A stretch of 64,000 nucleotides of DNA from an uncultured Chthonomonadaceae bacterium. GTDB lineage: Bacteria; Armatimonadota; Chthonomonadetes; Chthonomonadales; Chthonomonadaceae. The position numbers were made by a program, and so were the translations under genes. This document shows positions 1 through 64,000 of this stretch, one piece after another (positions within the stretch are counted from its first letter, which is position 1; each line of letters begins with the position of its first letter). The notes below the pieces were generated by a model that had not been told where the DNA came from, did not search any database, and was given only the letters and a program-made list of their open reading frames with translations. The stretch lies in the NCBI GenBank assembly GCA_963817895.1, contig CAWFQB010000002.1, positions 160,001 through 224,000 of the forward strand, in the 5' to 3' direction.

Positions 1-1
1 G

Positions 2-18780: not shown

Positions 18781-18841
18781 ATTCTGGACAACACATGGAA
18801 CATAGAAAGTGAGGACGAACAACACAATCAAAGTATCAAGA

Positions 18842-21165: not shown

Positions 21166-21212
21166 GGCATTGCCCTTCAACGGAAATATGCGAATATAGG
21201 ATAGTCTCATAT

Positions 21213-29466: not shown

Positions 29467-29527
29467 CGTTGTATCCTTATGGCACGGCGGGAAAAGCATT
29501 TCCCGCCGTGCCAACTATGAACCGATG

Positions 29528-31894: not shown

Positions 31895-32330
31895 CAGGCT
31901 CCTCCTTTGCTTTGCGGCGTTGCAGTTCCTCCACGCGCCGGGCCAGTTCCGCCAGGTCTGCCCCTTCCTCTGCGGTCTGGGAAAAGTAGGTCGCTACCGC
32001 CTTCGGGAAACGTGCGATAAGATTGTCGAGTACACCGGAAACGATCCTTGCCTCCAATTCCGGTTCGGTCACGACGGCGAAATAACGGTATGCTTTGCCT
32101 TCCTTCTCCCGGCGAACGATGTCCTTGTTCAGCAAGCGATCCAACGTCGTCAGAACCGTAGTTAAAGCAATCGCCTGCTCCTTGTCCAATGTCTGTTGCA
32201 GGTCGGCGGCAAGACAACCGGACTCGCCACAGCCCCAGACTTCCTGCATGATGGCTGTCTCTAACTCACCGAGCGGCCCGCCCACGCCAGTACGTTCCGG
32301 TCGAAATCTTTGCCGTGCTTTGTTGGTCAC
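31884..32330 (-). CDS. BlaI/MecI/CopY-family repressor
   Basis: LGELETAIMQEVW, TTVLTTLDRLLNK, KAYRY; GGAGGA RBS before GTG. Confidence 0.92.
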   Translation of the reverse strand: MTNKARQRFRPERTGVGGPLGELETAIMQEVWGCGESGCLAADLQQTLDKEQAIALTTVLTTLDRLLNKDIVRREKEGKAYRYFAVVTEPELEARIVSGVLDNLIARFPKAVATYFSQTAEEGADLAELARRVEELQRRKAKEEPDGS

Positions 32331-32385
32331 TTGCTCCTCCGTTTTCTCTTGATACAATCTCTATACCAAGTTTACCACAGGTGAG

Positions 32386-44639: not shown

Positions 44640-44654
44640 CCCTTTTGAATTTTC

Positions 44655-44695
44655 GTGCCATCGAAGGCGAAATTATATTTCGCCTTCGATGGCAC
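44655..44695. terminator. hairpin with 19-bp perfect arms
   Basis: GTGCCATCGAAGGCGAAAT-TAT-ATTTCGCCTTCGATGGCAC. Confidence 0.7.
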
Positions 44696-44770
44696 AACTT
44701 ACTCGTAATTTGATACACCTACTTGCGTGGAGCGGAAATTTCTGCTCGACGCATTATTTTTGTACACCCC

Positions 44771-44802
44771 TTGACTCTGGAACCAATTCCATAGTTTATA
44801 CT
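44771..44802 (+). promoter_or_regulatory. MerR-type promoter/operator
   Basis: TTGACT, 20 bp, TATACT with dyad ACTCTGGAA-CCAA-TTCCATAGT. Confidence 0.85.
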
Positions 44803-44808
44803 AACGCC

Positions 44809-45252
44809 ATGAAACACGCACATACGAAACAAACCACCTTGCGCTCCGGGGAACTGGCACGAGTGGCAGGCGTCAGCACCGACACACTGCGCCATTACGA
44901 GCGCAAAGGATTGCTCGCTCCGGCACGAGCCGCTAATGGTTACCGTGAACACCCTCAAGCAGCACTGGATCGCGTTCTGCTGATACGTCGGGCGCTCGCT
45001 GTTGGCTTTGGATTAGATGACTTGGCGCGTATACTCCAAACACGCGATCAGGGCGGTATGCCATGCCGCGAGGTGAGGACACTTGCCGTTACAAAACTGG
45101 ATGCAGTGGAAGCGCAAATCATAGAGTTGATCCGGCTGCGTGACGATCTGCGAGAGATGGTACACGACTGGGATGTAAAATTGGCAGAAACGCCCGTAGG
45201 AGAACGCGCGCGCCTACTGGAAACGCTGGTTTCCCAAAATTGGACGACATAG
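44809..45252 (+). CDS. MerR-family regulator
   Basis: GELARVAGVSTDTLRHYERKGLL, NGYR, GFGLDDL. Confidence 0.92.
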   Translation: MKHAHTKQTTLRSGELARVAGVSTDTLRHYERKGLLAPARAANGYREHPQAALDRVLLIRRALAVGFGLDDLARILQTRDQGGMPCREVRTLAVTKLDAVEAQIIELIRLRDDLREMVHDWDVKLAETPVGERARLLETLVSQNWTT

Positions 45253-45267
45253 AAAGGGAAGGGGAAA

Positions 45268-45990
45268 ATGAAGAAATCGGTTAAGGACAACGCTTTACGG
45301 ATTCTAACTGTGCTGCTGGTCAGTTCGTCTGGTGGAGTATGCGCCCAAGCCGCCTCTGGAATGGATACGGGCCACATGGAGCGAATGCGCCATGAGAAAA
45401 GCCACGACATGGATACAATTCATCAGATGTTCAACTACACCGCCAAGATCAAAAGAACTGTGAAGAAAACACCAACTGGCATGGAAACCGCCACAGAGTC
45501 CAATAATCCAAAGGTAGCGGCGATGATTCAGGAACACGTTCTGGCGATGCGGACGCGCATGAAGAATCACCAGCCGATCCGCGCCTGGGACGAATTGTTC
45601 GCCACACTTTTCAAGAACGCCGACAAGGTGAAGTTCGAGATCATCAAAACACAGAAGGGAGTCAGGATTGCCGAAACGTCGGATGATCCTTATACAGTGA
45701 AGATTATCCGTGCCCACGCCCATGCGGTTTCCGACTTCATCAAAGAGGGCATGACGGGAATGGCGAAAGCGCATCCGGCTCCGGCGAAAGTGGAAGCGAC
45801 GGCAAAGGTCGTGCCCGCCGCATTCCTCGGCAAAGGGGATGGCGTCACCACTTGCCCAGTGACAGGGGAACCGGTGGACAGGAATATCAAGGCTGAGATC
45901 AACGGGCGAACTGTCTATTTCTGCTGCGCCAGTTGCAAAGGTATTGTACAAAATAAGCCGACGCAGTACCTCAAGCCGAAGTCGCCATGA
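45268..45990 (+). CDS. secreted His/Met-containing protein with C-terminal YHS domain
   Basis: Signal peptide; CPVTG...VYFCCASC. Confidence 0.75.
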   Translation: MKKSVKDNALRILTVLLVSSSGGVCAQAASGMDTGHMERMRHEKSHDMDTIHQMFNYTAKIKRTVKKTPTGMETATESNNPKVAAMIQEHVLAMRTRMKNHQPIRAWDELFATLFKNADKVKFEIIKTQKGVRIAETSDDPYTVKIIRAHAHAVSDFIKEGMTGMAKAHPAPAKVEATAKVVPAAFLGKGDGVTTCPVTGEPVDRNIKAEINGRTVYFCCASCKGIVQNKPTQYLKPKSP

Positions 45991-46029
45991 AACTTATATT
46001 TGCGTGACGTACTCATTGCCGCATATAAA

Positions 46030-46704
46030 TTAACCTGTGTCTGTTGTTCCAGGTTGCGAACAGCACTTGTTGCAGCACTCCCCGGAGATGGCTTCCTTTC
46101 CTTCCTTGATAAGGAACGGAATGAGGACAAGCGCCGCTACAAAGTTGAGCCACCACCATCCGAATAACCGGGTTGCTGCCAATCCCCCCATGAGAACGAG
46201 GGATAGATACCCGCAGGTAATCGCCTCCATAGCATCTGCGCGAAGCGCACGGGAATTCAAGCGCGCCGCAACCTTCAACTTGAATCCCGCCAGTATGGGC
46301 ATTCCAATCTTTGCGACCAGACCGATCAAGATACCCCAGGCGCTTTCGTGGGTATCGGTCACCCGATGCGCGAAGAACAGGCCGTAGGCGGAATTCAGAA
46401 CGACGTAGGCGGCGAGTATATAGAGCGTATAGCCGACCATCCGAGATGCTCGCCGCTCAACCGCCTCCACAGTCGCTTCATTCGCACGTCCTGATGCCTC
46501 AATTTGCAACCGCCAGAGCAGCACGCCCGCGCTGAACAACTCCACCACACTATCAATACCGAAGGCTTCAAGCAGCAGGCTATGGGAGGCGTGACCCAGC
46601 CACAGCGAGGCTGCGCCTTCAATGGTCATCCAAACGAGTGTAAGGTAGGTAAGTGCCAGGGCCAGCCTCACATCCGCGGCGCGGTTGTTAGCAGGGTTGT
46701 TCAT
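46030..46704 (-). CDS. short CDF-like cation transporter
   Basis: SLLLEAFGIDS..E, SRALRADA; TM domain only, Cys-rich tail. Confidence 0.8.
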   Translation of the reverse strand: MNNPANNRAADVRLALALTYLTLVWMTIEGAASLWLGHASHSLLLEAFGIDSVVELFSAGVLLWRLQIEASGRANEATVEAVERRASRMVGYTLYILAAYVVLNSAYGLFFAHRVTDTHESAWGILIGLVAKIGMPILAGFKLKVAARLNSRALRADAMEAITCGYLSLVLMGGLAATRLFGWWWLNFVAALVLIPFLIKEGKEAISGECCNKCCSQPGTTDTG

Positions 46705-46811
46705 ACTCTATCCTTCCTTCCATTTGCCAATCAGTTCCTTCGCAAGACCTAATTCCTCTTTAGAGGCTAAGGTGAGGGTACTGCGCTTGATACGTGTCGT
46801 CGGCTGTCGGG

Positions 46812-47750
46812 TTAAAGGAAAACTATCGTCGGCAATGCGCCATGCTCCTCCTGCTGATGTTTTTCCTCCGCCTGAAATGGTTCCGTGTGCAGGGTTATGA
46901 CGCTGTTAGGCAGAGCCTCGCGCACTCGCTGCTCTAACTGCTCGGTCAGTTCGTGGGCCTGCAACAGCGTGAGGTTGTCATCCATTAGGACATGGGCATC
47001 CACATGACGCACCGAACCTGCCTTGCGCGTCCGTAATTTGTGATAAGCCAGCACGTTTGTGTCGGCATCGAACACCTGCCGTATCGTTTCTATTTCCTTT
47101 TGCGGTAACTGCCTGTCAACAAGTGTACCGAACGCCTCACGCGCCACTTCCCATGCACCGTGGACAATCACGAGCGCCACCACCAACGCCAGCACGGAAT
47201 CGAAGAAGGCCAACCCCGTCACCCTCACCAGCACAAGGCCGATGAGAACGCCAATAGCGGTGTAGATGTCATTGCGGTGATCTTGGGCATCGGCGCGCAA
47301 TGCCTGTGAGTTTGTTTGCTCGGCGACCCGTTTGACATAGCGCGCGATGAAGATATTGACGATGGCGGATACGACCATGATGCCTATACCCCAATCCACA
47401 CGCGCAGGCGCGGCATGATGGACGAGGTGCTGAACAGCCTCATAGATGATGTAGGCGGCAACCCCGAACAGCAGGAGGGCCTGCACAAACGCGGACATGC
47501 TCTCCATTTTGCCATGTCCATACGGATGTGTTTCATCAGGAGGACGATCTGCAACGCGCACAGCGACCAGAGCAAGGCTGGATGCCATCAGGTCACTGGC
47601 GGAATGTGCGCCTTCGGAAATCACGCTCACGCTGCCGGAAAGCAGGCCGATTGCCAACTTGATAACCGTCAGTGCCAGGTTTGAGACTAGGGACACGCGG
47701 GCGGCGGCAAGTTTCTCCTGCTGCGCTTGCGAAACAGGATTGGTCTGCAT
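46812..47750 (-). CDS. CDF transporter (FieF-like)
   Basis: HSASD, HPYGHGKME, DHRND, C-terminal dimerisation domain. Confidence 0.9.
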   Translation of the reverse strand: MQTNPVSQAQQEKLAAARVSLVSNLALTVIKLAIGLLSGSVSVISEGAHSASDLMASSLALVAVRVADRPPDETHPYGHGKMESMSAFVQALLLFGVAAYIIYEAVQHLVHHAAPARVDWGIGIMVVSAIVNIFIARYVKRVAEQTNSQALRADAQDHRNDIYTAIGVLIGLVLVRVTGLAFFDSVLALVVALVIVHGAWEVAREAFGTLVDRQLPQKEIETIRQVFDADTNVLAYHKLRTRKAGSVRHVDAHVLMDDNLTLLQAHELTEQLEQRVREALPNSVITLHTEPFQAEEKHQQEEHGALPTIVFL

Positions 47751-48785
47751 CAAGGTTTTTCTCCCACGGGTGCGGCTTCGCCGCAAAACAATGGGTTCTT
47801 CTCGTGAGCCACGCATTCGCCCTGTAACTCCGGCTGAATTGTCGCGTGTGCGATACCGAAGTCATGGGCCAGGAGTTCACAAAGATCGTGAACAATTTTA
47901 CCGCAATCCGTCATTTTGCAGAGGTCAGGGACAACCACATGGCATGAGAGATAGTTCATGCCGTCCGTTACTGTCCAGGTGTGCAGGTCGTGTACCGCCA
48001 GAACATTGGGAACGCTCCGCATGGCCTCGACCATTTTGTTTGTGTCCAGGTTCCTGGGTGTGCCTTCCAGCAGAACGTCCGTTGCGTCCCGCACAATCCC
48101 CCACGACGAATACAGAATAAACAGCGCGATCAGCACCGAAACGGTGGGGTCGGCATAGAGCCATCCCGTCTTTTTAACCACAAACCCGGCGATGAGAACT
48201 GCTAGGGAGGAGAGCGCATCCCCCGCCATGTGAATAAACGCCGCGCGCATGTTCATGCTTTCCTTCGCGCCGCCTTGCAGCAGATAGGCAATGACTGTAT
48301 TCATCACGAGCGCGATTGCGGCGACCCACAGCATCAATGTGCCATTGACCTTTTCCGGTGTGCGGAACAGTTGATAGGCTTCCACGAGGATGAAGACGGC
48401 GATCAGAATGAGCGTCACCGCATTGAACAGCGCCGTGAGGATACCAACCCGGTGATAGCCATACGTCTTTTTGGCGTTGGCAGGCTTCTTGGCAATCCAG
48501 ACGGCGTAGGCTGCCAATCCCAGAGCCAGGGCGTCGCTCAGGTTGTGGCCTGCATCCGAAATGAGAGCCAGCGAGTTAGCAACGCGCCCAGCGATGAACT
48601 CTCCGATGACGAAGACAACTGTTATCCCCATTGAAATCCAGAGCATGGGGCCATGCGTCGCGCCATGTACATGGCCCGTACCGCCATGATCGTGTTCATG
48701 GCCTGCATGGTTGTAATCATCCCCCTGACTATTAGGCTCCTCATGGCCTGAGTGTTCATCGTGCGAAAGTGACGATTTCGGACAT
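47750..48785 (-). CDS. CDF transporter (CzcD/ZitB-like) with His-rich N terminus (frameshift near start)
   Basis: SDAGHNLSD, TYGYHR, HMAGD, HDLHTW, HATIQ; AGGAG before ATG at 48785. Confidence 0.88.
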
Positions 48786-48805
48786 TCTGCTTTCTCCTGT
48801 AATAG

Positions 48806-50074
48806 TTAAAGTTGTTCATCCTGCTCGCCCTGTGCGCTCTGAGGCTGGAATGTTGCCTTTTCCATTGTTCCTATTACATTCCGAGCAGCAACAACGGCAA
48901 CGCCGACAGACACGATGCCCGCCAGTAGGTAGGGCACTTCGGGCCTCCAATCGAACAGCACACCGCCCAGCAGAGGACCGACGAGGAAACCGAGCGAGCG
49001 CGTGGATTGCAGCAGGCCGAACATCTCGCCCTGACGCGGTTGGGGCGTGGCCTCGCTGCATAAGGTGTTGAGCGTTGGGTTAGCGCAGGCTGTGCCAATG
49101 GCAAACAGGGTACTGGCTCCAAAAAGCGCGAACAGGTTGGGCATGAACGGCATGAGGGCCAACCCGACGCCTTGCAGCAGATAGGAAAGGCGCAACAGCA
49201 GGGATGGCGCGATACGATGCGAAATCTTGTCCAGTAATACGCCCTGAACAACAACGTTCAGAAGCGCCTCATACCCGAAGATCAAGCCAAACTCTTTCGG
49301 GCCATATCCCAACTTGTGCCGGATCAGGCGTCCGAACGTTCCTTCCAGACAGGCCAGCACAAAGAACGCAAGCGCCGCCACGACAAATAAAGGCCGGAGG
49401 GAAGGCGTGTCGCGCAGCAGGGATAGGTCGAAGAACTTCTGGCGCGGCTTCACTTTGCTCTCTGAGCGCGCGTCACGCGGAACACTCAACCAAATCCACA
49501 AGGCTCCAAGCGCCGACGCGCTTGCCGCCACTCCGCCCACCAGAACATTACTCCCCTGCGCCGCCAGCCATCCGCCAAGCGCGGGGCCGAGGATCAGACC
49601 CCCTGTCGTCGCCGCTCCCATGCGCCCCATTGCCGCCGCACGGTTCGGTTCGTCCGTCGCGTCGGCAAGGTACGCCTGCGCCACCACGACGTTCGCGCCG
49701 CCAAACCCTGCCAGAATACGGCTCGCCAGCACCCACCCGATGCCGTGTGCGAGCGCGTAAACCAGCATGGAACCAGCCGACAACACACCACACACGATAA
49801 GAATGGGCTTGCGGCCTATGCGGTCGCTCAACTGTCCCCACGCAGGCGAACAGAGCATCTGAACCAGAAAGTAGGCCGTAAATACGCCGCCAATCTGCCA
49901 GCCCCGCGCCCCGAACGCTTCCAGCCGCGTCTGCACATCCGGCAGCAGCATCCCGAAGCCCGCGAGATCGAGGAAGATGGCAAATAGGAGAGGCCACTCA
50001 TGGCGAGGAACCCATCCTGATGACATAAGCGGGTGCGCTTGGGGTTGAGCATTGACGTGTACAACGTGCTTCAT
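48806..50074 (-). CDS. MFS transporter (TetA/DHA1-like)
   Basis: GQLSDRIGRK motif A, GPALGG. Confidence 0.9.
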   Translation of the reverse strand: MKHVVHVNAQPQAHPLMSSGWVPRHEWPLLFAIFLDLAGFGMLLPDVQTRLEAFGARGWQIGGVFTAYFLVQMLCSPAWGQLSDRIGRKPILIVCGVLSAGSMLVYALAHGIGWVLASRILAGFGGANVVVAQAYLADATDEPNRAAAMGRMGAATTGGLILGPALGGWLAAQGSNVLVGGVAASASALGALWIWLSVPRDARSESKVKPRQKFFDLSLLRDTPSLRPLFVVAALAFFVLACLEGTFGRLIRHKLGYGPKEFGLIFGYEALLNVVVQGVLLDKISHRIAPSLLLRLSYLLQGVGLALMPFMPNLFALFGASTLFAIGTACANPTLNTLCSEATPQPRQGEMFGLLQSTRSLGFLVGPLLGGVLFDWRPEVPYLLAGIVSVGVAVVAARNVIGTMEKATFQPQSAQGEQDEQL

Positions 50075-50340
50075 ACTTCTATTTGCCCGCTTCGACAGTA
50101 ACAGTAGACAAACTGTTGTGTGACTCCGAATGGTGTATGGTGTACCTCATGGGTATGCTCGACCAGTTGAAAGGACGCGCTGACTTCACTCGGAGGCTTT
50201 GTCGCGTAAACATTTTCCCAATGGGTTTTTGTGTGCATTGTTCTGTTATCCTCTCAAAATGCCCGAAAGTCGTATGAGAACAGAAACCTTCCTAGCATAA
50301 GTAGTCACACCGTCAATACCTAATCAGATAGTTTCGTCGT

Positions 50341-50378
50341 CATCGCTTGTCACTTCATTGCTTGTCACTTCATTGCTT
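50341..50378 (+). repeat. 15-bp tandem repeat, ~2.5 copies
   Basis: CAT(C/T)GCTTGTCACTT repeated in an intergenic region. Confidence 0.75.
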
Positions 50379-50413
50379 AAAGGTCTGGCCCCTTATTCTC
50401 ATTCTTCAAGACG

Positions 50414-51752
50414 TTATGCTGCCGGGCAGAGTTGGACGACCACACCGCCAAACGAGCGCACATGATTACGCAGCACCGTTTCCACGTCCTGCGTAATCAT
50501 GTGCGCTTCCTGCATGGAGAGACCCGGATCAACATCAATATGCAGATCAGCGAAAACCTTATGCCCCACCCACCGCGGCGCGAGCCTGATGGACGCCCCG
50601 CACACCGGCAACATACAAGGGGGTGCGTTCAATGTTGCTGAGGATTTCCGGCTCTATCCCATCCACCATGCGGTTGAAAACGGCTAACGTCGCGTCTTTG
50701 ACGATAAAGAGAATGGCAATCGTGATGAGAATGCCGATGAGTGGATCAATGATGGGATACCCGGCCCAAACGCCAACCACGCCCAACAGCACGGCGAGGC
50801 TTGTAAAGCCATCCACGCGCGCATGTTGACCGTCAGCAATCAGCGCCGCCGATTCGATTTCCCGGCCCACCTTGAGCCGAAGTACGGCAACGGCTTCGTT
50901 GCCGATGAAGCCCACGAGCGCCGCGACCGCGACCCAACCGAGGTGCGTAATTGGCTGGGGGTGAATAATCTTCATCACCAATTCATAGGCGGCGATGCAG
51001 GCCGAAAAGAAGATGACGCCGACAATCGCTACGCCCGCCACGTCTTCGGTTTTGCCATACCCATAGGTAAAGTGACGAGAGACGCCGCGCCGTGTGAGCG
51101 CAAACGCGATCCAGAGCGGAATACTGGTAGTCGCGTCCCCGAAGTTATGAATGGTATCCGCCAGGAGCGCGACCGACCCGGAGAGAAACACTATCGCCAC
51201 TTGAATGAGCGAAGTCACGAGCAGGATCACGAGCGTAATTTTAAGCGCCCAAATACCCCGCGCATTGCTTTCCATCGTCTCATCTATCTTATCCTCAATG
51301 CTGTGGGAGTGACCGAACGTGCCGCGCAGCCAGCCAAGAATTCCCCTGCCGTGTTCATGCCCTCCGGGGCCGTGCGCGTGACCGTGGCCTTCCTCAGTGA
51401 ACTCTGTTTCATAGGTGCGCGGAATGCCCGCTTGCGGAAGCGTGAGGCTTACGCGGAACTCATGCGGCTCCGGTATGTCCGAGGTAGAGCGTAGATAACC
51501 CGGTTCCGGGATGAACTCGAAGACCTGCTTTGCCCCGTCAGGCCGAACGGTTTCAATGGTGACAGCCGAACTTGTGACCGGAGGACAAGGCAGTTTTTCC
51601 GAGTTGAAGAAGTACAGTCGGAAATGCGGCGGAACTCCTGTTTCAAAGACGCTGATTTCCACAAAGCCGTTTTCGGTTTGTATCCGTGTCCCGCCATGCG
51701 GGGCGGCCTCGTTTTTGCTTTCGTTCATATCGTGCCTAACTTTCCCGGTCAC
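50414..51752 (-). CDS. CDF transporter with N-terminal soluble and His-rich domain (Co/Ni-type; frameshift ~50590)
   Basis: VFETGVPP...PEPHEF, HGHAHG, HNFGD, HARVD. Confidence 0.85.
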
Positions 51753-52027
51753 TTCAAATAAGCCTTGATAACATCTATGATTTCTTCGACCGCTTCAGCC
51801 TGTTCCGCTGTGGGAGGCCGTTCCGGGTCAACAACGTGCAGCCGAATATGCCCCTCCATCACTTCTGCCATCAGGCCGTTAATGGCCCCACGACAGGCGG
51901 CAATGCTTTGCAGGATTTGCGCCGGGTCTTTCTCTTGGTCGAGCGCCTTTTCAACTCCTTCCATCTGCCCCCGAATGCGGCGCACCCGGTCGAGGAGTTT
52001 CTTTTTGTCTCGAATGGTATGGCTCAT
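51749..52027 (-). CDS. RcnR/FrmR/DmeR-type metal-sensing repressor
   Basis: MSHTIRDKKKLLDRVRRIRGQ, IAACRGAINGLM, HIRLH. Confidence 0.9.
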   Translation of the reverse strand: MSHTIRDKKKLLDRVRRIRGQMEGVEKALDQEKDPAQILQSIAACRGAINGLMAEVMEGHIRLHVVDPERPPTAEQAEAVEEIIDVIKAYLK

Positions 52028-52063
52028 GTTGTCACCTTCCCGATATTTCGCTTGTTCTCGCGC

Positions 52064-52089
52064 GTATACTATACCCCATTAGAGTATAC
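52064..52089. promoter_or_regulatory. RcnR/FrmR-type operator
   Basis: GTATACT-ATACCCCATTAG-AGTATAC inverted repeat around a C tract. Confidence 0.7.
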
Positions 52090-52299
52090 CGACGACGAAA
52101 ATGTTTCCTCATTATGGCAGCGGGCGGAGTACCTTAAAAGCACGTTCGCGCGTGACTTCCTCAAAGCCGCATGACCTGTTGGCGGAATATCAGACCGGGC
52201 GGCTGAGGAACGACATTGACAACAAGTTCCATTCATAGGCAGCAAGCCTTCGCCAACTTTTCGGATATGTGTACAAAGATTCATTTCCGAAGGTTCGGC

Positions 52300-52483
52300 T
52301 TAGATCAGCGTGTCGGGAATCATAATTTCCAGTTTGGTCTTGACGATCTGCTCATAGCGTCCGGGATGGACGCTGACAGCGCACCTCGGAAAGCGTAATG
52401 CCCGGCAGCCCTTCGATCTCATGCAGCGCGTTCAGAACGTTATCCAGCATGAACGGCTGAATGATGGCTTTGACTTCCTTCAT
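52300..52483 (-). pseudogene. truncated P-II-family protein downstream of czcA (absent from ORF track)
   Basis: MKEVKAIIQPFMLDNVLNAL...GITLSEV / VKTKLEIMIPDTLI*; one frameshift, C-terminal GDGKIF part missing. Confidence 0.7.
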
Positions 52484-52536
52484 CGGTGTTCTTCGCACAG
52501 ACCCAGGCGAGAATATTCCTCGCCTGGGTCTGCAAG

Positions 52537-55637
<3,101 letters not shown>

Positions 55638-55640: not shown

Positions 55641-57427
55641 TCAGTCATCCCCTTTCAGTTTGTCTTTGTTGGCTTCGCTTTTCAGGACAAACATGCCTTC
55701 CGTGACAACGCGCTCACCGGCTTTGAGGCTTCCGATGATTTCCGCCTGTGTATCGGTGACGCGCCCAACCTGCACCTTGCGTCGCTCGTACTTGCCATTC
55801 TCCTCCACGTACACGAACCTGTCCGCGCCATCTTCTTCCAGGGCGGAGACCGGCACGGTGAGGGCGTTCGTGCGCGTACCAACGCCGAGCGTGACGCGGG
55901 CGAACATCTCCGGGCGAAGCAGCCCGCTGCGGTTTTCGACCAAACACCGCACAGCAAGCGCGCGGGTCTTTTCGTCTACCCGGCCTGCAATGCTCTGCAC
56001 TGTTCCGGGGAAGTGCTGCTTGGGATAGGCCGGAACCGTCACCTCCACAGGCTGCCCCACCCGGATGCGCGCAACGCTCGCTTCGGCAACATTGGCGTTG
56101 ACCGTTACGGTGTTCAGGTTCTCGATGACAAGAAGGGCCGTCGTGCGCTCCACAGCCTCGCCGGTTGTTGCGGCGCGCTCCGTAACAACCCCGCTGATAG
56201 GAGCCGAAACGGTGATCAGACCGCCATTTCCCTCCGTATGCCCACTTCCTTCCAGGGCGTAAAGATTGGTGCGGGCGGTTCGCAACGTATCTTCCGCGCC
56301 TCGCAAAGTGGTTCGGGCCGCCTGCTCGCCTTTTTGTGCGCGGCGAACGTCCTGCTGTGCCCGCAGCACTCCCTGTCGGGCTTTCTGCACCTCGCCCTGC
56401 GCGGCGCGCACGTCGGCTTCTGCGGTCTGCACTTCGCGCGCGTTCAGCAAACCGCCCTGAAAAACGGTCTGTTCGCGTTGCAGCGCTTGTTTGGCAATGG
56501 CGACACGCTCCTGAATCCGGTTCACCGTGATCTGGTTCTGTTTTTGTTCCAGTTGTGCCGCTTCGTAATCGTTGCGCGACACCAATTCTTCTTTGAACAG
56601 CCGCTCGGTGCGCTGCAACTGCGCCGCGCGGGTTTGCAGTTGCGCTTGCGCCTGTTGTAGTTCGGATTGGGCAGCGGTCACCTCGGTCTGAGCGGCTTGT
56701 AGCGGGACTTGTGAGAAGGCTCCCGCCTGAGCCAGTTTACGCTGGCGCTGCAACACGGTTTCCGCGCTGGCTTGCCGGGTGCGCGCCTGCTCCACTTCGC
56801 CCTGCGCCTGCTGGACGCTTGCTTGGTACTGTGATACCTCCGCCTGCGCGGTTTGTATCCCGGAGCGCGCCTGCTGTATGCCGGATTCGGCCTGGCGCAC
56901 GGCAGCATGGGCCTGTGCCACCTCATAACTATCCAGAACGACGAGCGGCTGTCCGGCGCGCACCGTATCGCCAAGATTGACCAGCAGGCGCATCACCTTG
57001 CCGGGCGTGGGCGGCGTAATCTTCGCGCCCCGATTGGGACTGAGTTCGACGGTGCCGGGAACGGTCAGCCCTTCGCCGATGGACGCAAGACGCGCTGCCA
57101 CCACGCGAATGCCAGCAGTTTTGGCGGCTTCCTCGCTCAAGGAAATGGAGCCGGAAGCGTCGCTTTCTGCTTTGGCTTCTTTGGGTGCGTCCTGAGCCGG
57201 GCTTGTGGCGGCGGGGGCGATGGATGAAGGCGCGGCATTACAAACGACGTAGCCACAACGCCGAGCAGAATGCCGCCAATGATAAGCGGCAAGCCCGATT
57301 TGCGCGGTGAGGCGGCCTGGCGCCTGCCAGAGATCGGAACACTTGCCGCAGTCCCATGCGTGGTTCTAGGTACAGGTGGCGGTATATGTTCGGTTGTGTT
57401 GTGTGTGGTTTCGGGCAAAGGATTCAT
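55641..57427 (-). CDS. czcB: heavy-metal RND periplasmic adaptor (frameshift ~57150)
   Basis: GDTVRAGQ, SAPISGVV, LRPEMFA. Confidence 0.85.
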
Positions 57428-57429: not shown

Positions 57430-58699
57430 TTACCTCCGGGGCGCGGGCAGCAACGAAGCAGGAACCGCACCCGCCGCGCGCTCCAACTCGGCGCGCGCCT
57501 GGGCCTGGTTTGCCAGAGCGTTGATGTAGTCGGTTTGCACGGCGCGATATGTGCGCTGCGCTTCCAAAATGGTGAGGACGCTGGTTCCCGCCGCGCCTTC
57601 CTGAAACGCCCTGCGGCTGCCTTCCAGCAGGCGGCGTGACTGGTCGAGGATGCCCTGTTGGTAGTTCAGCGCCACGGTTTGAGCTGCGCGCAGGCGGGCA
57701 ATGGCCTGAGTCACTTCCTGCTGCACCTGGTTCTGGGTTGCGGTAATGCGGTCCGTCTGCGCGCGGGCAGATTCTTCGGCCTGGCGGATGCGGTTGCGGC
57801 GATTGCCGTAGTCAAAGATGGGCAGCGAAATGCCTAGTCCCACGCCGAAGCCGTTGCCCGTGTCGCCGCTCGGCGTCCCTCGTACCAGGCTGCCGAAGCG
57901 GATTTGGGGCGCGAGGTCAGGGCGGCCCTCGGCACGGGCAAGGCGCGCTTCCTGCAAGAAGGTGTCGCGGCTGGCAGTCACACTGGCAATCTCGGCCCGG
58001 TTTTGCAAGGACTGCTGCACAAGAGCCGCATCAGTGAGCGTTTCCGTAGCCGAAGGCAGTGGGGTGAGCGGGCCAATGGGAGTGTCTGCGGGTCTTCCCA
58101 AGAAGGTGTTCAGAGCAGAAATTGCAGCCGTCACCTGGGCATCTGCAAGGGTCACCTGCTGCTGCGCGCGCCCCACTTCAATGCCGGTCTGTGCCAGATC
58201 AATGCCGGGCCGCCTGCCCGCCTTCCACTAGGAGGCGCGTCACGCGGTCGAACTCCTGCGCGTTTTTCAGCACCTCCTGCGCCAGGGTTTGCAGTTCCCG
58301 CGCCTGTTCCAGTTGGTAGTAGGCGGACTTGGTAGCCGACACGAGACCCCGCAGTTCAACAACCGCCTCGGCCTGGGTGACGCGCAACTGCGCCCCGGCA
58401 ACGCCTGTGCGCGCGGAGCGAGTTCCATTGAGTTCCAATGGCTGGGACAACAACAGTTCGTCGCCGGAACCGGAAATACTTGTCAGTCCTGGCGCGAAGA
58501 TGAAGTTGGGGTTGGTAAGCGCGCGTGCCGAACGGACGCCAGACTGTCCCGCCACGACATCTCGCGTGGCAGCCGACAGGCGTGGGTTGTTCTTGACCGC
58601 CAGCGTCACCGCATCGTCTGCGGTGAGGGGCGGGGATATGGTCTGTGCCGTGATAACACCCGGCACAAGCAAAAGCAAACAGGGAAGAATGAAACGCAC
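57430..58699 (-). CDS. czcC: TolC-family outer membrane factor (frameshift ~58200)
   Basis: NNPRL, LSQPLEL, SLPIFD, LEAQRT. Confidence 0.85.
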
Positions 58700-58800
58700 G
58701 AAATCCTCCTGACAGACCCGATGGGCCGGATGTCAGGCAGGCGTAAAGAAGGAATGGCACAATGCGCTGACGAACCCGGCTCGAAAATAAATTGGGTAGG

Positions 58801-59244
58801 TCAGGCGATAGGAGGAGCGCGTAGGGAAAGATTGCGGAAATTCAGAGGAGCGCGAGGCGGGCCGCGTGTCTCAATGTGAAGGAGAACAGTCTCGGATGCA
58901 GGCGGGGCCGCATACGTGATGGTGGGCAGAACAGGGAGAATGGCAATCGCAAGCGAGGGAACGATATGGGAAGGCACTGCGGCATCATGTGAGGTCGCCG
59001 CTTTGACGTTCAACGTACATTTACAGCCAGCGCCACACCCATCTGCTTTGCGGGCGTTGGTGGTATTCGTGGAGCGTACACGGCATTTTAAATCTTGCTG
59101 ACGGATAGGAGCCTGACAGCAACAAACAGCGGCAGTGCTGCATACGCGCCCGTCGCAAATCCAAGCCATTGCCTCCCCACTTGATAACAGCGAGGTTAGC
59201 AAAATCAGGCAGGCCAGTATTCGGGTGAAGATGTTTCGTACCAT
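58801..59244 (-). CDS. Cys-rich leader protein ending RGPP...RAPP
   Basis: Signal-like N terminus, WICDGRVC/CCC/CGAGCKC, ETRGPPRAP...LRAPPIA*; first gene of czcCBA operon. Confidence 0.72.
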   Translation of the reverse strand: MVRNIFTRILACLILLTSLLSSGEAMAWICDGRVCSTAAVCCCQAPIRQQDLKCRVRSTNTTNARKADGCGAGCKCTLNVKAATSHDAAVPSHIVPSLAIAILPVLPTITYAAPPASETVLLHIETRGPPRAPLNFRNLSLRAPPIA

Positions 59245-59251
59245 CCTGAGC

Positions 59252-59260
59252 ATTATACCA
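59252..59260 (-). promoter_or_regulatory. extended -10 TGGTATAAT, probable leaderless start at 59244
   Basis: ATG 7 nt downstream of TATAAT. Confidence 0.6.
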
Positions 59261-59315
59261 CAATATTATGACACATCAAAGAATATCGGTTTCATTTAGC
59301 AAGACTGATGAGGAG

Positions 59316-60563
59316 TTATGGGATTGGTAGTTGGAAATCTCTAGCCTCAAGCAATAGTTGGGCAATAGTATCCATTTCCTTCTCAGCAGCGACATGCCAG
59401 GGCGTCATTTGCCAGGGATCAAGCAACATTGCGGCAGACATGTCTTGTTGCAGTATCGCCTTTAGTCTTTCCACATCACCATCCAGTACGGCTCGAAACA
59501 CCGGTATGGCACGCCGCGACGCAGTTGTAAGCGAACGCACTATTGGAGATGATATGGCTTCCTGGTAGGTGATGGCGTCCCCATGAGCCAAATCCTTGAG
59601 GGCCAACTCCAATGGTGTACTTCCATTGGAATCTCGTGCTGAGATGTCAGCGCCCGCTGTGAGCAAAATGTCAATGATTTGCTCCCGCCGCTTGATGCGT
59701 TCATCCTCATCCGACTTGTCGCCACCAATTGGTGGCACCCCCAAATCAACGCCATACCATTTTCCATTATCCCAGCCAATGTTTGAGGCAGCCAAGTGCA
59801 ACGGTGCGCGCGATAGACTATCCTGAGCATTAACCCACGCACCTGCATCAATCAATGCCTGAACAGTTGACGGACTATAACTAAGTGCCGCATTATGCAA
59901 CGGAGTTTCTTCAAAGAAGCATCTAGCCGCGAGATTGGCTCCATATCCAATCAAACATTCTACAATCTCCGAATGGCCTGTTGTTGCTGCCAGGCTAAGA
60001 GCAGTCTTGTAACCCTGCTTGGTTTGCTCAGTGCGCGCACCCATCTCAAGGAGGACGCGCACCACTTCTACTCGTTTGTTAAAAATCGCGACCAGAAGCG
60101 GTGTCGGATAAACACTATCATTGGCTACGGAATTGACCAACTCAGGTTGTTGTTGAAGCAGTTGTCTAAGGATTTCGACTTTACCCAACCCTGCGGCTTG
60201 ATATACGGCCTCGATCTCTCTTTGTTGACGTGCCGCAGTCTCTCTTATAGTCCGCATCTGTGTGGATGCCGCTTCTTCTGCGCCTGCTAGGACGCCCGTT
60301 ATTTCTGTGTTGCCATGATACACTCTAGCCCAATACCAGGGGGCATATCCACGTCTATCGCAGGCGTACACATCTGCTCCTCTCGATAATAGTAATCTTG
60401 CTATATCCGCGTGTCCGCCTGCCGCTGCCCAATGGAGTGCTGTCCAACCGTCGTTTCCGGGCCGATTGAGGCATTCAGCATCTTCAATCAGCAGGCGCTC
60501 CACTTCCGCCACGTCGCCCTGCTCGGCTGCACGATAGATAGTCTTCTCGTCAAATATACCCAT
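59316..60563 (-). CDS. ankyrin-repeat protein
   Basis: GWTALHWAA, TPLHNAA, APLHLAA, LL..GAD repeats; GGAGG RBS. Confidence 0.92.
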   Translation of the reverse strand: MGIFDEKTIYRAAEQGDVAEVERLLIEDAECLNRPGNDGWTALHWAAAGGHADIARLLLSRGADVYACDRRGYAPWYWARVYHGNTEITGVLAGAEEAASTQMRTIRETAARQQREIEAVYQAAGLGKVEILRQLLQQQPELVNSVANDSVYPTPLLVAIFNKRVEVVRVLLEMGARTEQTKQGYKTALSLAATTGHSEIVECLIGYGANLAARCFFEETPLHNAALSYSPSTVQALIDAGAWVNAQDSLSRAPLHLAASNIGWDNGKWYGVDLGVPPIGGDKSDEDERIKRREQIIDILLTAGADISARDSNGSTPLELALKDLAHGDAITYQEAISSPIVRSLTTASRRAIPVFRAVLDGDVERLKAILQQDMSAAMLLDPWQMTPWHVAAEKEMDTIAQLLLEARDFQLPIP

Positions 60564-60694
60564 GCCTCTCCTCCAATACCGGTCGTCGTGAAGCAAACAT
60601 TTTCACTTAAAAATATACCATGTTTTCACTTGTAAACCTATTGAGGACTACAAACTTGCGATAATGGTACACTCCCTTTGAATGGATTGTGCTA

Positions 60695-60979
60695 ATGCCG
60701 CGTGGTGCTCCCAGATTACGTGCAGGTGATGGAAAAAAGAACCAAGTGGGTTTGCGTGTGCGGCAACGCCGGGTGGAACTGCAACTCACTCAAGACGCCG
60801 TAAGCGCACATTTGGCGACGGCAACCGATGGAGAGTGGAGCCCCACTTTGCAAGAGATACTACACATCGAAAATGGCAGCCGTATCGTATCCGATGTTGA
60901 AGTGGTTGCTCTGGCACGCGCATTAGAGTGTGATGCGTGCTGGCTCCTGGTAGGGAATAGAGATGAGACAAACGCTTGA
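60695..60979 (+). CDS. XRE-family HTH regulator
   Basis: VGLRVRQRR..LQLTQ, IENGSR, LARAL. Confidence 0.85.
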   Translation: MPRGAPRLRAGDGKKNQVGLRVRQRRVELQLTQDAVSAHLATATDGEWSPTLQEILHIENGSRIVSDVEVVALARALECDACWLLVGNRDETNA

Positions 60980-61021
60980 TTGCCCGTATGAAATGTTTTT
61001 CATACGGGCAATCAAGCGTTT
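60970..61021. terminator. hairpin with 24-bp perfect arms overlapping the XRE stop
   Basis: AAACGCTTGATTGCCCGTATGAAA-TGTT-TTTCATACGGGCAATCAAGCGTTT. Confidence 0.65.
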
Positions 61022-61233
61022 AATGAAGTATTAACCACCTTAAACTTGCCGCTCCTGCTCGAAGCAAATTATTTTCTCTATTTAATCGATTGCAAAATCC
61101 ATTATGGAAAGCGACATTCCACATTGTTGATCCACTTTCACAGGTGTACTTACTGGTTTCCACAGCATCCTTACGGGATTTTGCAACGAGCAGGTAATCC
61201 TACGATGAGGCCGAGGTTGGCACGAGCCGAAGA

Positions 61234-63261
61234 TTGATTTACCTCATATTTTTGAGGCCAATTACAATCTCATCTCTAGGAAATATGTCGATGAACATGT
61301 CCGCCGAATTTGATCAGAACATCTTTACCTGCCACACCATGCCGCTCGCGGGCTATCTTGAATCAGAAGGCTACGCGGAGATCGCTCCTAAAAAGAAGGT
61401 AAACGCTGCTGACTATGAGCGTTTGGTGCCGACGACAACCACCATCGCACGCGCAATGTTTTCAGCGCTTCCTCAGCGGGATAGGTGGGGGCGGCAGGTA
61501 CAGGGAAGGACAGGAGGGCAGTGGGTGACAGAGGTTAGAGGCCAATGGTATCCGGCGCGCAATGGCTCAAAGCGTCCCGGCAAATCCCTGACGGCTCACG
61601 ACCTTCTGCGCTCCCTTGCCCGCCCCAACGTGTTTGCGTTCGGGCGCACCGATGCCCATGTTGAGGAAGTTGAGTTTCCTCGGTTCCGGGCTGAGGAGTT
61701 TCACACTACCTCTGTGGACTGTCTTTGTCTCGATGTGGATATGGATTTTGCCTGGGAGCGGCAGGATGCTGGAATGATACATCACGAGATCGCCCGTGAG
61801 CATGAGATCGCTCGCGCGCTTGGTCTGTTCTATCGCGTTTTCAGGACAGGGAGCAGAGGGCATCAGGTGGTAATACCGCTCCCTGCCGCTATTGATCGTA
61901 GTGTTGCGACATGGCTGTTGTATGGGTTCGTGAGTCTTCTCGAACAGTATCATCTGCGGGACACGGCAGAGAATAGTAACCATCTGCTTGCCAAAGCCGA
62001 TGTCTCTAATCTGGAAAAGATCATTCGAATCGCCGGAGGAAGACACATCAGGACGGGCAGGCTTGCCCTATGGATTGATCCCGGCACGGGACACCTGCAT
62101 GACCTGGCGCAACAAAGCGAGTTGATGCGCCGAGGGTATCAGCATCCGGGAAATGGGGCATTCGCGCGCGAGGATTATATTGAGGCCGCCGAGGAAATTG
62201 CGGCTTATCTTGAGTCTCAGATGGTGTTTCGTCACGAATGTCCTAAGATGCCTTTTCGCACAAACATGTTCCATGTGGTAGTGAAAGCGTTACCGACCAA
62301 TCTACTCGTTGAACGCTTCTTGGCTGCACAGGACGAATGGGGGCTATCTGCGACCTCAGCGCGTTTGTCAAAGGTGAGTACGCCCAAAGTTGACACCACC
62401 CATGTGGAAAACCAAACGGACGCCAGTGAATGGCAGTCGGCACCGGAGGGCATACAACAATGGGCAACCCGTGTTTGGGCCATGCAGTGGGGTGAAGGAA
62501 CATTTTGGTCTTGGGTAAATGAGGGAGGAGAGCGGGCCATCACTGCCGCCAAAGTTTTATTCGGCGATCAGGCGCTCAGAAAACTGATCGAGCGCACGTA
62601 TGCTGCGCCGCATGTTACGCCGGAGGAACCGAACGAATGGCGCAGGGTTATCAATGCGCTTTACCATCGGCATGAAATGTTGGGATATAAAGCGCGGCTG
62701 AATCCCAACACCGTGTTTGGACATCTTTCGGATGAGGATGTAGCGTTGATTCCGATGATAACGGACGCGCTAAATACGCATAAAAAAATCCAAACGCGCA
62801 ACCGGGAGGACATCGAACACATCATCTACATCTTGCTGCTGGCGTTCAAGCAGTCTGTCGAAGGCTATATTGATCTTTCACAGGAGGCTATCCGAGATTC
62901 CATCCGTACCCGATGGCCTGATGCTGACGTGGATGTTTCCACAATTTGGCGACACCTGCGCCGTCTCAAAGAGGGCGACTCCGCTTGCGGCTTTTCCCTT
63001 TTACAATCAATCCGTGTGGATCGTTCAGGGCAAAACTATGCGGCACGGTACCGGCCTGGCGCAGACCTGCGCAAAACACCGTTCGGCGCGACACTGCCTG
63101 TTGACGCTTGCGAGGATGCTCCAGAGCGTACGTCTGGCCCATTAGAGATGGAGGTTATATCTCGTGTCACAGGCAAAATCGAAACCGTTGATCTCTCTCC
63201 TAAACAAAGAGGACGCAAACCAACGCAACAATATCAAGAGGAACACACAGTAATAAGATAA
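61234..63261 (+). CDS. putative replication protein: AEP primase-like domain plus C-terminal HTH
   Basis: LCLDVD (DxD), TGSRGHQV, IRIAGGRH; LSQEAI...VSTIWRHLRRL; start more likely 61285-61297. Confidence 0.65.
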   Translation: MIYLIFLRPITISSLGNMSMNMSAEFDQNIFTCHTMPLAGYLESEGYAEIAPKKKVNAADYERLVPTTTTIARAMFSALPQRDRWGRQVQGRTGGQWVTEVRGQWYPARNGSKRPGKSLTAHDLLRSLARPNVFAFGRTDAHVEEVEFPRFRAEEFHTTSVDCLCLDVDMDFAWERQDAGMIHHEIAREHEIARALGLFYRVFRTGSRGHQVVIPLPAAIDRSVATWLLYGFVSLLEQYHLRDTAENSNHLLAKADVSNLEKIIRIAGGRHIRTGRLALWIDPGTGHLHDLAQQSELMRRGYQHPGNGAFAREDYIEAAEEIAAYLESQMVFRHECPKMPFRTNMFHVVVKALPTNLLVERFLAAQDEWGLSATSARLSKVSTPKVDTTHVENQTDASEWQSAPEGIQQWATRVWAMQWGEGTFWSWVNEGGERAITAAKVLFGDQALRKLIERTYAAPHVTPEEPNEWRRVINALYHRHEMLGYKARLNPNTVFGHLSDEDVALIPMITDALNTHKKIQTRNREDIEHIIYILLLAFKQSVEGYIDLSQEAIRDSIRTRWPDADVDVSTIWRHLRRLKEGDSACGFSLLQSIRVDRSGQNYAARYRPGADLRKTPFGATLPVDACEDAPERTSGPLEMEVISRVTGKIETVDLSPKQRGRKPTQQYQEEHTVIR

Positions 63262-63265
63262 TTCA
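63239..63265 (+). repeat. 27-bp direct repeat, copy 2, overlapping the rep stop codon
   Basis: Identical to 18842-18868. Confidence 0.95.
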
Positions 63266-63514
63266 GTTTTTAGGGATGAACACATCCAGGCATCGAGCCA
63301 CGAGTTGGAGGCCAGACAATGCCGACACTCCTATGGTTGCTCCTCCCATTTTGATGGAGAGCCATTATTTCGGGGGAAGGCCAGTATACAACGTAATCGC
63401 CGTCGAGTATACCATACGCCAATGTGCCACAACCATTGCAGCCTCTCTCGTGAATGAGAGGGAGTTCGCCCGCTCTCTAACCCTGCGTGTGCGATTGGCA
63501 GATGACAGCCATGT

Positions 63515-64000
63515 TCAGGATTTGCCTGACGCATCAATTGGGAATGTGACAACAACACGCCCACCACCCCGATCTCGATTCTCGTACACGACATCCCCGC
63601 ACAAGTCCCATCGCGCCGTGCTGTCAATGAGTTCCAAGCCTGTATTTGCGGCTTTGCGTGGGTCGAAGCCAGCAGGGAAGCCGTCGCCATCGTCGCATAC
63701 TTCCAGACGCGCGGTGCCTCCCTCAACCTCAAGGGTAATCTCCACTTCTCCCTTTGCGTGTTTGATGGCATTGCTGACGCACTCGCTGACCAGCAGGGAT
63801 AGCGCGGTGGCTTTCTGCACGGAAAGTGGTATGTCCGCGATGTCGGCTTTGATACGCCTGTCACCGCTTGTTGCCTGCAACATGGGGATCAGGTGTTGCA
63901 GAACGTCTTCGGCGCTGACAATGGAGGTGCTGGCATCCCGCTTTGCCTGCTGCGTCAGCAAGTCATGGATCGTGGCGAGCGAGCGGATGTGCTGCTTGAT
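63515..64000 (-). CDS. HisKA_2/HWE-type histidine kinase, C-terminal part (runs off window)
   Basis: IHDLL, ECVSNAIKHA, DDGDGFP, TGLEL. Confidence 0.85.
   Translation of the reverse strand: MKQHIRSLATIHDLLTQQAKRDASTSIVSAEDVLQHLIPMLQATSGDRRIKADIADIPLSVQKATALSLLVSECVSNAIKHAKGEVEITLEVEGGTARLEVCDDGDGFPAGFDPRKAANTGLELIDSTARWDLCGDVVYENRDRGGGRVVVTFPIDASGKS

Follow-up and report, generated by a model that had tools for sequence, protein, structure and literature searches.

A putative exported arrest peptide encoded upstream of czcCBA-like genes in a Chthonomonadaceae bacterium

Results

Organisation of the leader #3 locus

We examined 64,000 nucleotides (nt) of DNA from an uncultured Chthonomonadaceae bacterium (assembly GCA_963817895.1, contig CAWFQB010000002.1, positions 160,001 to 224,000). 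This stretch is called the window and coordinates are numbered from its first base. Our focus was a small gene, leader #3, on the minus strand. It sits 101 nt upstream of a czcC-like gene, in the same orientation, that encodes an outer membrane efflux protein (OEP). The leader #3 product has the sequence Arg-Ala-Pro-Pro (RAPP) close to its C-terminus. Only seven stop-to-stop frames of at least 25 amino acids in the window have the pattern R[AG]P[PG] within their last 15 residues. An exact RAPP is found in three of these, which are leaders #1, #2 and #3.

The leader #3 open reading frame (ORF) spans 58801..59253 and encodes 150 amino acids from the ATG at 59253, or 147 from the likelier ATG at 59244. 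Residues are numbered from the former. The product reads MLRMVRNIFTRILACLILLTSLLSSGEAMA-WICDGRVCSTAAVCCC...CGAGCKC...ETRGPPRAPLNFRNLSLRAPPIA-stop. Briefly, it can be divided into four parts. Residues 1-30 (59164..59253) form a predicted signal peptide, ending ILACLILLTSLLSSGEAMA and followed by tryptophan. The cleavage site is placed from an alignment of 50 relatives, in which the A-x-A site and the next residue are conserved and W31 is invariant. The N-terminus is hydrophobic and is modelled by AlphaFold2 as a helix over residues 3-24. A cysteine-rich domain (residues 31-83; 59005..59163), delimited using the alignment and the model, would be exported and is the proposed metal-sensing part. 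Its pattern is AW-ICDGRVC-STAAVCCC...C...C..GC.C. Two proline motifs follow, as the original prediction stated. The codons CGC GGC CCG CCU (58866..58855) specify RGPP at residues 130-133. Fifteen residues downstream, CGC GCU CCU CCU (58821..58810) specify RAPP at residues 145-148. The latter is two codons, for Ile and Ala, before the stop codon at 58803..58801.

A sigma-70-like promoter (10 of 12 matches) precedes the gene on the minus strand. It comprises TTGATG (59279..59274), a 16-nt spacer with TG at 59260..59259, and TATAAT (59257..59252). The 3' end of the promoter is 8 nt before ATG 59244 and the transcript is predicted to start at ~59245. The match carries little weight alone because the scan found one site, compared to a mean of 0.8 in 50 shuffles. 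The leaderless start proposed previously is nonetheless plausible, since no Shine-Dalgarno (SD) sequence precedes ATG 59244 and the family profile, described below, begins to align at exactly this methionine (MVRN...). A gene for an ankyrin-repeat protein (59316..60596) ends ~35 nt upstream of the -35 hexamer.

Three genes follow leader #3 on the minus strand. The OEP gene (57430..58699) is read in two frames, 58199..58699 (166 amino acids) and 57430..58176 (248 amino acids), both matching PF02321 (2.8e-11 and 3.4e-22, respectively). A czcB-like membrane-fusion protein (MFP) gene occupies 55641..57427, with its N-terminal anchor (57137..57427) and body (55641..57140) in different frames. The third gene (52568..55637) encodes a resistance-nodulation-division (RND) pump of the CusA/CzcA family, in at least six reading frames. 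It was recognised using Pfam, NCBIfam and comparison with ZneA and CusA. Just past the pump gene is a small ORF (52352..52567) with no Pfam match at E<=1e-5.

NCBIfam assigns the pump to the joint CusA/CzcA family only. The fourth transmembrane helix (TMH4) carries proton-relay signatures that differ between pump types; D-F-G...D-G-A in Czc-type and A-x-G...D-A-A in Cus-type proteins. The TMH4 segment encoded here aligns better with ZneA (E=7.5e-33) than with CusA (E=4e-24). Hence, it is reasonable to label the pump Czc-like, of the divalent-cation type. A periplasmic fragment does not discriminate between the two (2e-49 versus 5.2e-49). None of the downstream genes encodes a protein-localisation factor. 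By this criterion, leader #3 falls outside the substrates that monitor Sec or YidC (SecM, ApdA/P and MifM).

Leader #3 belongs to a conserved family

A word-indexed search identified four close relatives of leader #3, with identities of 45-99%. All four keep WxCDGRVCST..VCCC, ETRGPP and SLRAPPxA-stop. Leader #3 is 99% identical to P0001, a protein from an independent data set. A family profile was built from the close relatives and searched against 1.84 billion representatives of clusters formed at 50% identity. This returned 159 representatives at E<=0.001, with 101 at E<=1e-10. Motifs were counted in the 150 representatives that were listed, and the following numbers refer to these.

R[AG]PP occurs within the last 60 residues of 141 sequences. 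The nine without it include shorter sequences (106-137 amino acids) that look truncated. The last motif is RAPP in 113 cases and RGPP in 28, and begins exactly six residues from the C-terminal end in 106 of the 150. Two motifs are found in 118 sequences and the upstream copy is RGPP in 114 of them. The distance from motif to motif is 15 residues in 105 of the 118, with 14 and 16 residues in four and nine sequences, respectively. W.C..G..C is present in 144. Family members range from 79 to 242 amino acids and none of those listed is fused to another protein. Their source names are "hypothetical protein" or blank throughout.

Residue conservation was taken from the 50-sequence alignment, whose members are 26-47% identical to leader #3. 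Invariant positions are W31, C33, G35, C38, C44, C45, C46, C77, C79, R130, R145, P147 and P148. Nearly invariant are C57, C73, P107, G131, P132, P133, L144 and A146. One sub-group (P0043, P0050, P0055, P0057, P0067, P0073, P0074, P0091, P0095 and P0147) has RGPP-x11-RGPP followed by 8-10 further residues. The tails of these proteins, often ending ...IG[ST], replace RAPP-x-A-stop. Hence, the distance from motif to stop codon is not universal in the family.

No member of the leader #3 family matches a Pfam family. Leader #3 has no Pfam family at E<=0.01, and leaders #1 and #2 are also without a match. NCBIfam was searched with leaders #1 and #3 and gave no match. DUF2946 was matched by none of 50 family members at E<=1. 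An AlphaFold2 model made from the alignment (mean predicted local distance difference test score, pLDDT, of 75.5) has a small beta-rich domain at residues 28-84, with pLDDT of 80-93 over residues 31-60. It has no secondary structure from residue 85 onward. When this model was compared with the PDB using Foldseek, 18 matches were obtained at E<=10, of which not one had E<=0.001. No Pfam family is common to the 30 nearest clusters in the ESM Atlas. The top three (score 0.95) are named "Secreted protein" or "hypothetical protein", and the commonest phylum is Bacteroidota. DUF6769 and DUF8199, found among neighbours at 0.93, are leads only. A tblastn search of 72,556 plasmids gave no match to leader #3 at E<=1. 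One candidate locus, L001, was found in genome contigs using the patterns W[IVM]CDGRVC and ST[AT][AD]VCCC[QV]. We rejected it as spurious because the match lies in no ORF, just past an unrelated 768-amino-acid gene. Leader #3 is a real, conserved gene with the anatomy of an exported RAPP-type arrest peptide.

RNA structure between leader #3 and czcC

We divided the RNA around the czcC start into four segments, named a to d in the direction of transcription. Segment a (58800..58822) covers the last codons and stop codon of leader #3. Segment b (58758..58782) contains GUCAG. Segment c is the upstream arm of a local hairpin. Segment d (58694..58713) is the czcC initiation region, with AGGAGG (58710..58705) separated by 5 nt from the GTG start codon (58699..58697). 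All are on the minus strand.

The original prediction drew attention to a CCTGACA/TGTCAGG stem overlapping the AGGAGG of czcC. This is present; CCTGACA (58737..58731) and TGTCAGG (58714..58708) flank a loop of 16 nt (58730..58715). Folding extends the c:d hairpin (58708..58741) by pairing CCU (58741..58739) with AGG (58707..58705). In isolation the hairpin has a free energy of -21.0 kcal/mol. It is not the predicted ground state, which instead combines two other helices. When 58860..58680 is folded (-47.7 kcal/mol, z=-2.9, equalled by none of 200 shuffles), the minimum free energy (MFE) structure pairs segment a with segment d. Thus, 58822-17 (A CGC GC) pairs with 58699-94 (GUGCGU), 58813-10 (U CCU) with 58707-04 (AGGA), and 58805-00 (CC UGA C) with 58713-08 (GUCAGG). 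The SD sequence and GUG of czcC are thereby paired with a total of 16 bases from the L-R-A-P-P-I-A-stop codons. This outer a:d helix encloses an inner b:c stem, in which 58782-58758 pairs with 58743-58723. Segment b can therefore be described as a decoy for segment c. Alone, b:c has a free energy of -22.3 kcal/mol and is near-isoenergetic with c:d.

When the start region was shuffled 2000 times, four shuffles attained the energy of the a:d duplex (-21.0 kcal/mol). Synonymous recodings of L-R-A-P-P-I-A-stop that pair as well make up 0.85% of 82,944, or 1.3% if weighted by codon usage. Both RAPP prolines are encoded by CCU, which accounts for 19% of 339 proline codons in 15 intact genes.

The footprint of a ribosome extends from about -12 to +15 nt. 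Hence, with Pro147 in the P site, a ribosome would cover ~58827..58800, exactly segment a. Arrest at this point, with Pro148 in the A site, is predicted by analogy with RAPP peptides described in PMC10987492 and PMC12992588. Of the two SD-shielding structures that folding of this single locus predicts, only the long-range a:d helix lies within the footprint of the stalled ribosome. In constrained folding, the probability that the czcC SD sequence is unpaired, 0.008 in free RNA, rises to 0.06 with the RAPP footprint blocked and to 0.11 with a terminating ribosome. It stays at 0.008 if the RGPP footprint is blocked, and a ribosome held at RGPP leaves segment a untouched. The folding predicts a four-segment switch. 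Arrest would remove the a:d lock, and the openness of segment d would depend on b:c persisting.

We found no intrinsic-terminator-like site in the 101-nt intergenic region. An Rfam scan of 58500..59400 gave no matches at E<=1.

Leaders #1 and #2 and the surrounding metal island

Leader #1 (9701..10276, plus strand) has a signal peptide and the sequence SWQCLDGTPC, and ends ...GRAPPASV-stop. It has no RGPP. The likeness of its cysteine-rich body to that of leader #3, noted in the original prediction, is borne out by the family hidden Markov model, which scores leader #1 as a distant member (E=2.7e-6). Only the profile links the two; pairwise BLASTP sees no similarity. Behind leader #1 is a second heavy-metal RND operon (10472..18781). 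This consists of small ORFs (10472..11448), a split OEP gene (11364..12741), an MFP gene that encodes an HMBD domain and runs to 15192, and an RND gene split into three (15269..18781). The next start codon after leader #1 is 200 nt away, in its own small hairpin (CAUCAA/UUGAUG).

Leader #2 (30251..30689, minus strand) contains a frame break. The signal peptide and Cys/His-rich part are encoded by 30336..30689 and the tail, PRAPPFQG-stop, by 30251..30523. It precedes genes for a triple-YHS protein (29528..30181) and a multicopper oxidase (28147..29514), a layout like that of CutF and cutO. In the MFE structure, its CCU-UUC codons lie opposite a GAAAGG SD sequence. Upstream, at 30811..32360 on the minus strand, is a BlaI-type repressor gene (Penicillinase_R, 31887..32360). 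The ORFs that follow it, 31115..31894 and 30811..31236, have no Pfam matches and may encode its membrane partner.

Metal-resistance genes form an island that spans ~10 kb to 59 kb of the window. Besides the genes above, it holds two P-type ATPase genes, four cation diffusion facilitator (CDF) genes, and MerR-like and CsoR-like regulators. A dense metal block at 44626..52567 includes a MerR-family regulator (~44800..45249), a major facilitator superfamily (MFS) transporter and a CsoR/RcnR-type repressor (51749..52078). The CDF (Cation_efflux) genes are at 46030..46704, 46812..47816, 47750..48646 and 50559..51752.

Frame breaks run from ~11000 to 58700. Many long genes of the island are affected, namely those for the MFP, the two RND pumps, the two OEPs and the two P-type ATPases (18960..21210 and 21644..24434). 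Flanking genes at 4746..7166, 7679..9538, 59316..60596 and 61234..63261 are intact, as are the multicopper oxidase, CDF and MFS genes. The breaks reflect either an indel-prone assembly or gene decay. In the flanks (1..9600 and 59300..64000), the fraction of G and C is 0.51-0.55, compared to up to 0.64 in the island core. Flank genes include some without a Pfam match, one for an RNase_H_2/HhH protein (7679..9538) and a 675-amino-acid ORF (61234..63261). The layout, with lower-GC flanks around the island core, suggests that the metal genes are a horizontally acquired island.

Discussion

Comparison with known systems

Two bacterial systems provide precedents. In Rhodobacter capsulatus, copper-dependent stalling during synthesis of CutF, encoded in cutFOG, opens a stem-loop that shields an SD sequence (PMC9973294; bioRxiv 10.1101/2025.02.05.636593). 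As described there, CutF resembles the predicted leader #3 product in being small and Sec-exported, with a cysteine metal motif and a C-terminal proline stalling motif, and in being encoded by the first gene of a metal operon. For CutF, SD-shielding RNA precedes the next gene and is opened by the stalled ribosome, and metal prolongs the stall so that the operon is turned on; leader #3 would act likewise in the model proposed below. Leader #3 falls within the filter that Ozturk 2023 applied to CutF-like proteins (PMC9973294), with 147 amino acids (150 from ATG 59253 is borderline), PP at residues 147-148 and a 101-nt spacer. In the same study, the genes found most often downstream of CutF-like proteins are those for OEP/RND components (CusC/CzcC/SilC). 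However, in place of the features described for CutF, leader #3 lacks a DUF2946 match, and has nine cysteines rather than CxxxC and RAPP plus RGPP rather than a PPP run. It precedes an RND efflux system, not a multicopper oxidase, and its predicted anti-SD sequence is inside the putative arrest codons.

The second precedent is CruR (Bp2923) of Bordetella pertussis. According to its published descriptions, CruR also has RAPP a few codons before the stop and a conserved cysteine motif, and its gene heads a metal operon with a long intergenic region. Arrest at RAPP was observed in vitro with prolines in the P and A sites (PMC12992588), and Roy 2022 reports that regulation by CruR requires both the RAPP motif and Rho (PMC9426467). 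CruR differs from leader #3 in that it is described as a DUF2946 protein with a single RAPP. It controls an uptake receptor, and copper relieves the arrest to allow Rho termination. The sign of regulation would have to be opposite for leader #3, because its target is efflux.

Other likenesses are partial. CzcI and CzcI2 of Cupriavidus metallidurans are small periplasmic proteins encoded directly upstream of czcC. CzcI is reported to quench CzcCBA, and the czcI2 mRNA is leaderless (PMC10127602). PMC9973294 describes CzcI, encoded upstream of czcCBA, as CutF-like but without the C-terminal proline motif. It is described as acting on pump activity and not as an arrest peptide, and the likeness to leader #3 concerns position and published description only. 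ApdA, ApdP, SecM and the 'RQH' upstream ORFs share with leader #3, as described, an R-A/G-P-P core near the C-terminus of a small protein, a localisation signal and a place upstream of the regulated gene. In RAPP-type arrest peptides, the third motif residue is in the P site at arrest (PMC10987492, PMC10951233). These proteins are described as differing in that they monitor Sec or YidC and regulate secA, secDF or yidC.

The RNA invites a further comparison. In the ermC and cat leaders there are four RNA segments, and a ribosome stalled on segment 1 switches the partner of segment 4, which bears the SD sequence. The leader #3 region likewise has four segments, with near-isoenergetic b:c and c:d. 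However, its predicted ground state is nested, with a:d around b:c, rather than 1:2 plus 3:4, and a:b amounts to ~5 base pairs by eye. A metal in the periplasm would take the place of an antibiotic in the tunnel as the trigger.

RAPP and RGPP are described as the most robust arrest cores (PMC12992588; also Fujiwara 2024, PMC10987492). Fujiwara 2025 further reports RAPP/RGPP at the C-termini of small secreted proteins encoded upstream of metal genes (PMC12992588). The word "efflux" is absent from the main text of that paper. We found no literature linking RAPP translation arrest with RND efflux, and no description of a fixed RGPP-x11-RAPP module or of the leader #3 family, although the supplements of two papers could contain one (File S1 and Fig. 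S6 of PMC9973294; appendices of PMC12992588). What is new is thus the sequence family, the double motif, the Czc-like target and the predicted anti-SD sequence within the arrest codons; regulators of this kind are already known. All five sequence elements that the original prediction named are present, and its interpretation is supported in part. It extended arrest-peptide control to a Czc-type system. The arrest-peptide anatomy, the RND operon and a pump nearer to ZneA all agree with this. Its further claim, to have gone beyond the copper cases, is not new in kind given what PMC9973294 and PMC12992588 describe.

A proposed model for regulation by leader #3

In the reading that we propose as most likely, leader #3 opens a czcCBA-like operon as its first cistron and encodes a cis-acting, exported, metal-sensing arrest peptide comparable to CutF and CruR. 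Our confidence in this proposal is evenly balanced. Anatomy and precedent are our grounds for supposing that the ribosome arrests, that the product is exported by Sec and binds metal, and that regulation has the sign, and RGPP the role, given below. The gene's own promoter would drive transcription, probably giving a leaderless mRNA, and the signal peptide would route the nascent chain through Sec. Peptide-bond formation would then stall at RAPP, when Pro147 occupies the P site and Pro148 the A site. At this stage ~65 residues, from C79 to Pro147, would be buried in the ribosome and translocon. Hence, the nine-cysteine domain (residues 31-83) would have just emerged in the periplasm. The stalled ribosome, covering ~58827..58800, would uncover the SD sequence and GUG of czcC because the covered stretch pairs with them in the free mRNA. 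Segment c would remain held by the decoy, segment b, during the stall. The duration of arrest would be set by the state of the cysteine domain; metal-loaded, or folded and oxidised. Since the target is an efflux pump, metal is expected to prolong arrest, as for CutF, and so turn czcCBA on.

Because the spacing is rigid at 15 residues, RGPP and RAPP probably work together, either in one tunnel or on successive ribosomes. The spacing (105 of 118) fits a single composite module at least as well as two separate sites. It is more likely that RGPP is the tunnel-contacting half of such a module than an independent switch. Judging from its distance to the active site, RGPP would lie deeper in the exit tunnel.

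Several observations weigh against the proposed switch. With segment a blocked, the SD sequence mostly refolds into c:d at equilibrium, and its probability of being unpaired reaches only 0.06-0.11. For the switch to work, b:c would therefore have to be trapped kinetically, or the 30S subunit would have to assist. Forcing the SD sequence open costs 6-9 kcal/mol, depending on the flanks. The a:d pairing is a folding prediction from one locus, and 330 of 9139 27-nt segments of the same strand (3.6%) pair equally well with segment a. The equivalent pairing is also unremarkable at the other leaders. For leader #2, 614 of 2000 shuffles are as good and the synonymous rank is 0.16-0.20; for leader #1, the figures are 1419 of 2000 and 0.31-0.39. 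Since both fail the shuffle and synonymous tests, pairing between RAPP codons and the next start is not general, and we rejected it as a feature common to all three leaders. The gene neighbourhood is known for the leader #3 locus only. Finally, czcC and czcB each have one frame break and czcA is in at least six frames in 3.1 kb. With all three broken, the target genes may no longer function in this genome; alternatively, the assembly may be prone to errors.

Alternative explanations

The alternative that we take most seriously, although we think it unlikely, is transcriptional. As for CruR, one or more stalled ribosomes would shield the 3' end of leader #3, where the RNA is rich in C and poor in G, and so block Rho loading. 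Release would let Rho terminate transcription before czcC. In a variant, a second ribosome at RGPP would lengthen the shielded RNA. The last ~200 nt of the leader are C-rich, with C/G ratios of 2.07-3.67 in 78-nt windows from 58980 to 58783. The 78 nt from 58860 contain 33 C and 9 G, the composition expected of a Rho loading site, and the absence of an intrinsic-terminator-like site from the intergenic region also fits. However, the C-richness was read from base composition and is partly due to Pro, Ala, Leu and Ser codons. Rho would also leave unexplained the complementarity, at the level of codons, to the SD sequence and GUG. The two mechanisms are compatible rather than exclusive. A different reading, in our view improbable, is that the leader #3 product is a stable periplasmic metal-binding protein acting in trans, either damping CzcCBA as CzcI does or serving as a chaperone. 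RAPP and RGPP would merely slow translation for export or folding, and the RNA would set a constitutive translation ratio. Leader #3 does occupy the position of CzcI upstream of czcC, and its small domain with nine conserved cysteines is modelled with confidence. Yet a folded effector would need neither a motif six residues from the end in 106 of 150 relatives, nor a rigid 15-residue spacing, nor a ~65-residue unstructured tail. These are traits of arrest peptides. In addition, RAPP-like motifs are reported to be strongly avoided in ordinary proteins (PMC12992588), and none of the 18 PDB matches reached E<=0.001.

The two remaining alternatives are much harder to credit. In the original prediction, the local hairpin occludes the SD sequence. 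On this reading, a ribosome at RGPP or RAPP would melt the CCTGACA/TGTCAGG stem directly and free AGGAGG. The hairpin is stable and covers the SD sequence, and CutF offers a precedent in its own SD-shielding stem-loop (PMC9973294). However, the front edge of a RAPP-held ribosome would be at ~58800, leaving ~60 nt to the base of the hairpin (58741) downstream; from a ribosome at RGPP the distance is ~105 nt. Hence, the RAPP-held ribosome cannot melt c:d directly. Blocking the RAPP region in constrained folds causes the hairpin to form, not melt, and in the free RNA the codons from RAPP to stop pair with the SD sequence and start codon instead. It is similarly hard to believe that leader #3 is a relic, intact beside a decayed pump operon with nothing left to regulate in this genome. 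The frame breaks in czcC, czcB and czcA suit this idea, as do those in leader #2 and, elsewhere in the island, in further genes for RND, OEP and P-type ATPase proteins. However, breaks spread over many long genes are what assembly indel errors would produce, and an independent data set contains a protein with 99% identity to leader #3. Moreover, the relic explanation concerns the state of this copy, not the nature of the element.

Implications

A broader possibility, which we put forward tentatively and regard as rather doubtful, is that leader #3 is the founding example of an unannotated, widespread family (at least 159 clusters) of exported nine-cysteine sensors. The module E-x-R-G-P-P/11 residues/S-L-R-A-P-P-x-A-stop would act as a two-point ribosome lock, with RGPP deeper in the tunnel and RAPP at the peptidyl-transferase centre. 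Alternatively, it would be a two-ribosome brake that spares the trailing ribosome from collision. In either case, the family would link a Czc-type pump to thiophilic divalent metals (Zn/Cd/Co) in the periplasm. In the copy described here the arrest codons would double as anti-SD and anti-start sequence, so that arrest and unmasking would be one event on a leaderless mRNA.

Metal-sensing arrest peptides so far rest on two copper systems, CutF and CruR, from one protein family. Leader #3 adds a distinct conserved family ahead of a divalent-cation-type RND pump, with a rigid double motif and a testable RNA design. If our proposal is true, nascent-chain sensing of periplasmic metals arose more than once and the mechanism reaches Zn/Cd/Co efflux. 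It would also follow that RAPP and RGPP can be combined at a set spacing, a point relevant to the tuning of RAPP arrest by upstream contacts in the tunnel. The family also offers an annotation rule for ~160 clusters of "hypothetical protein".

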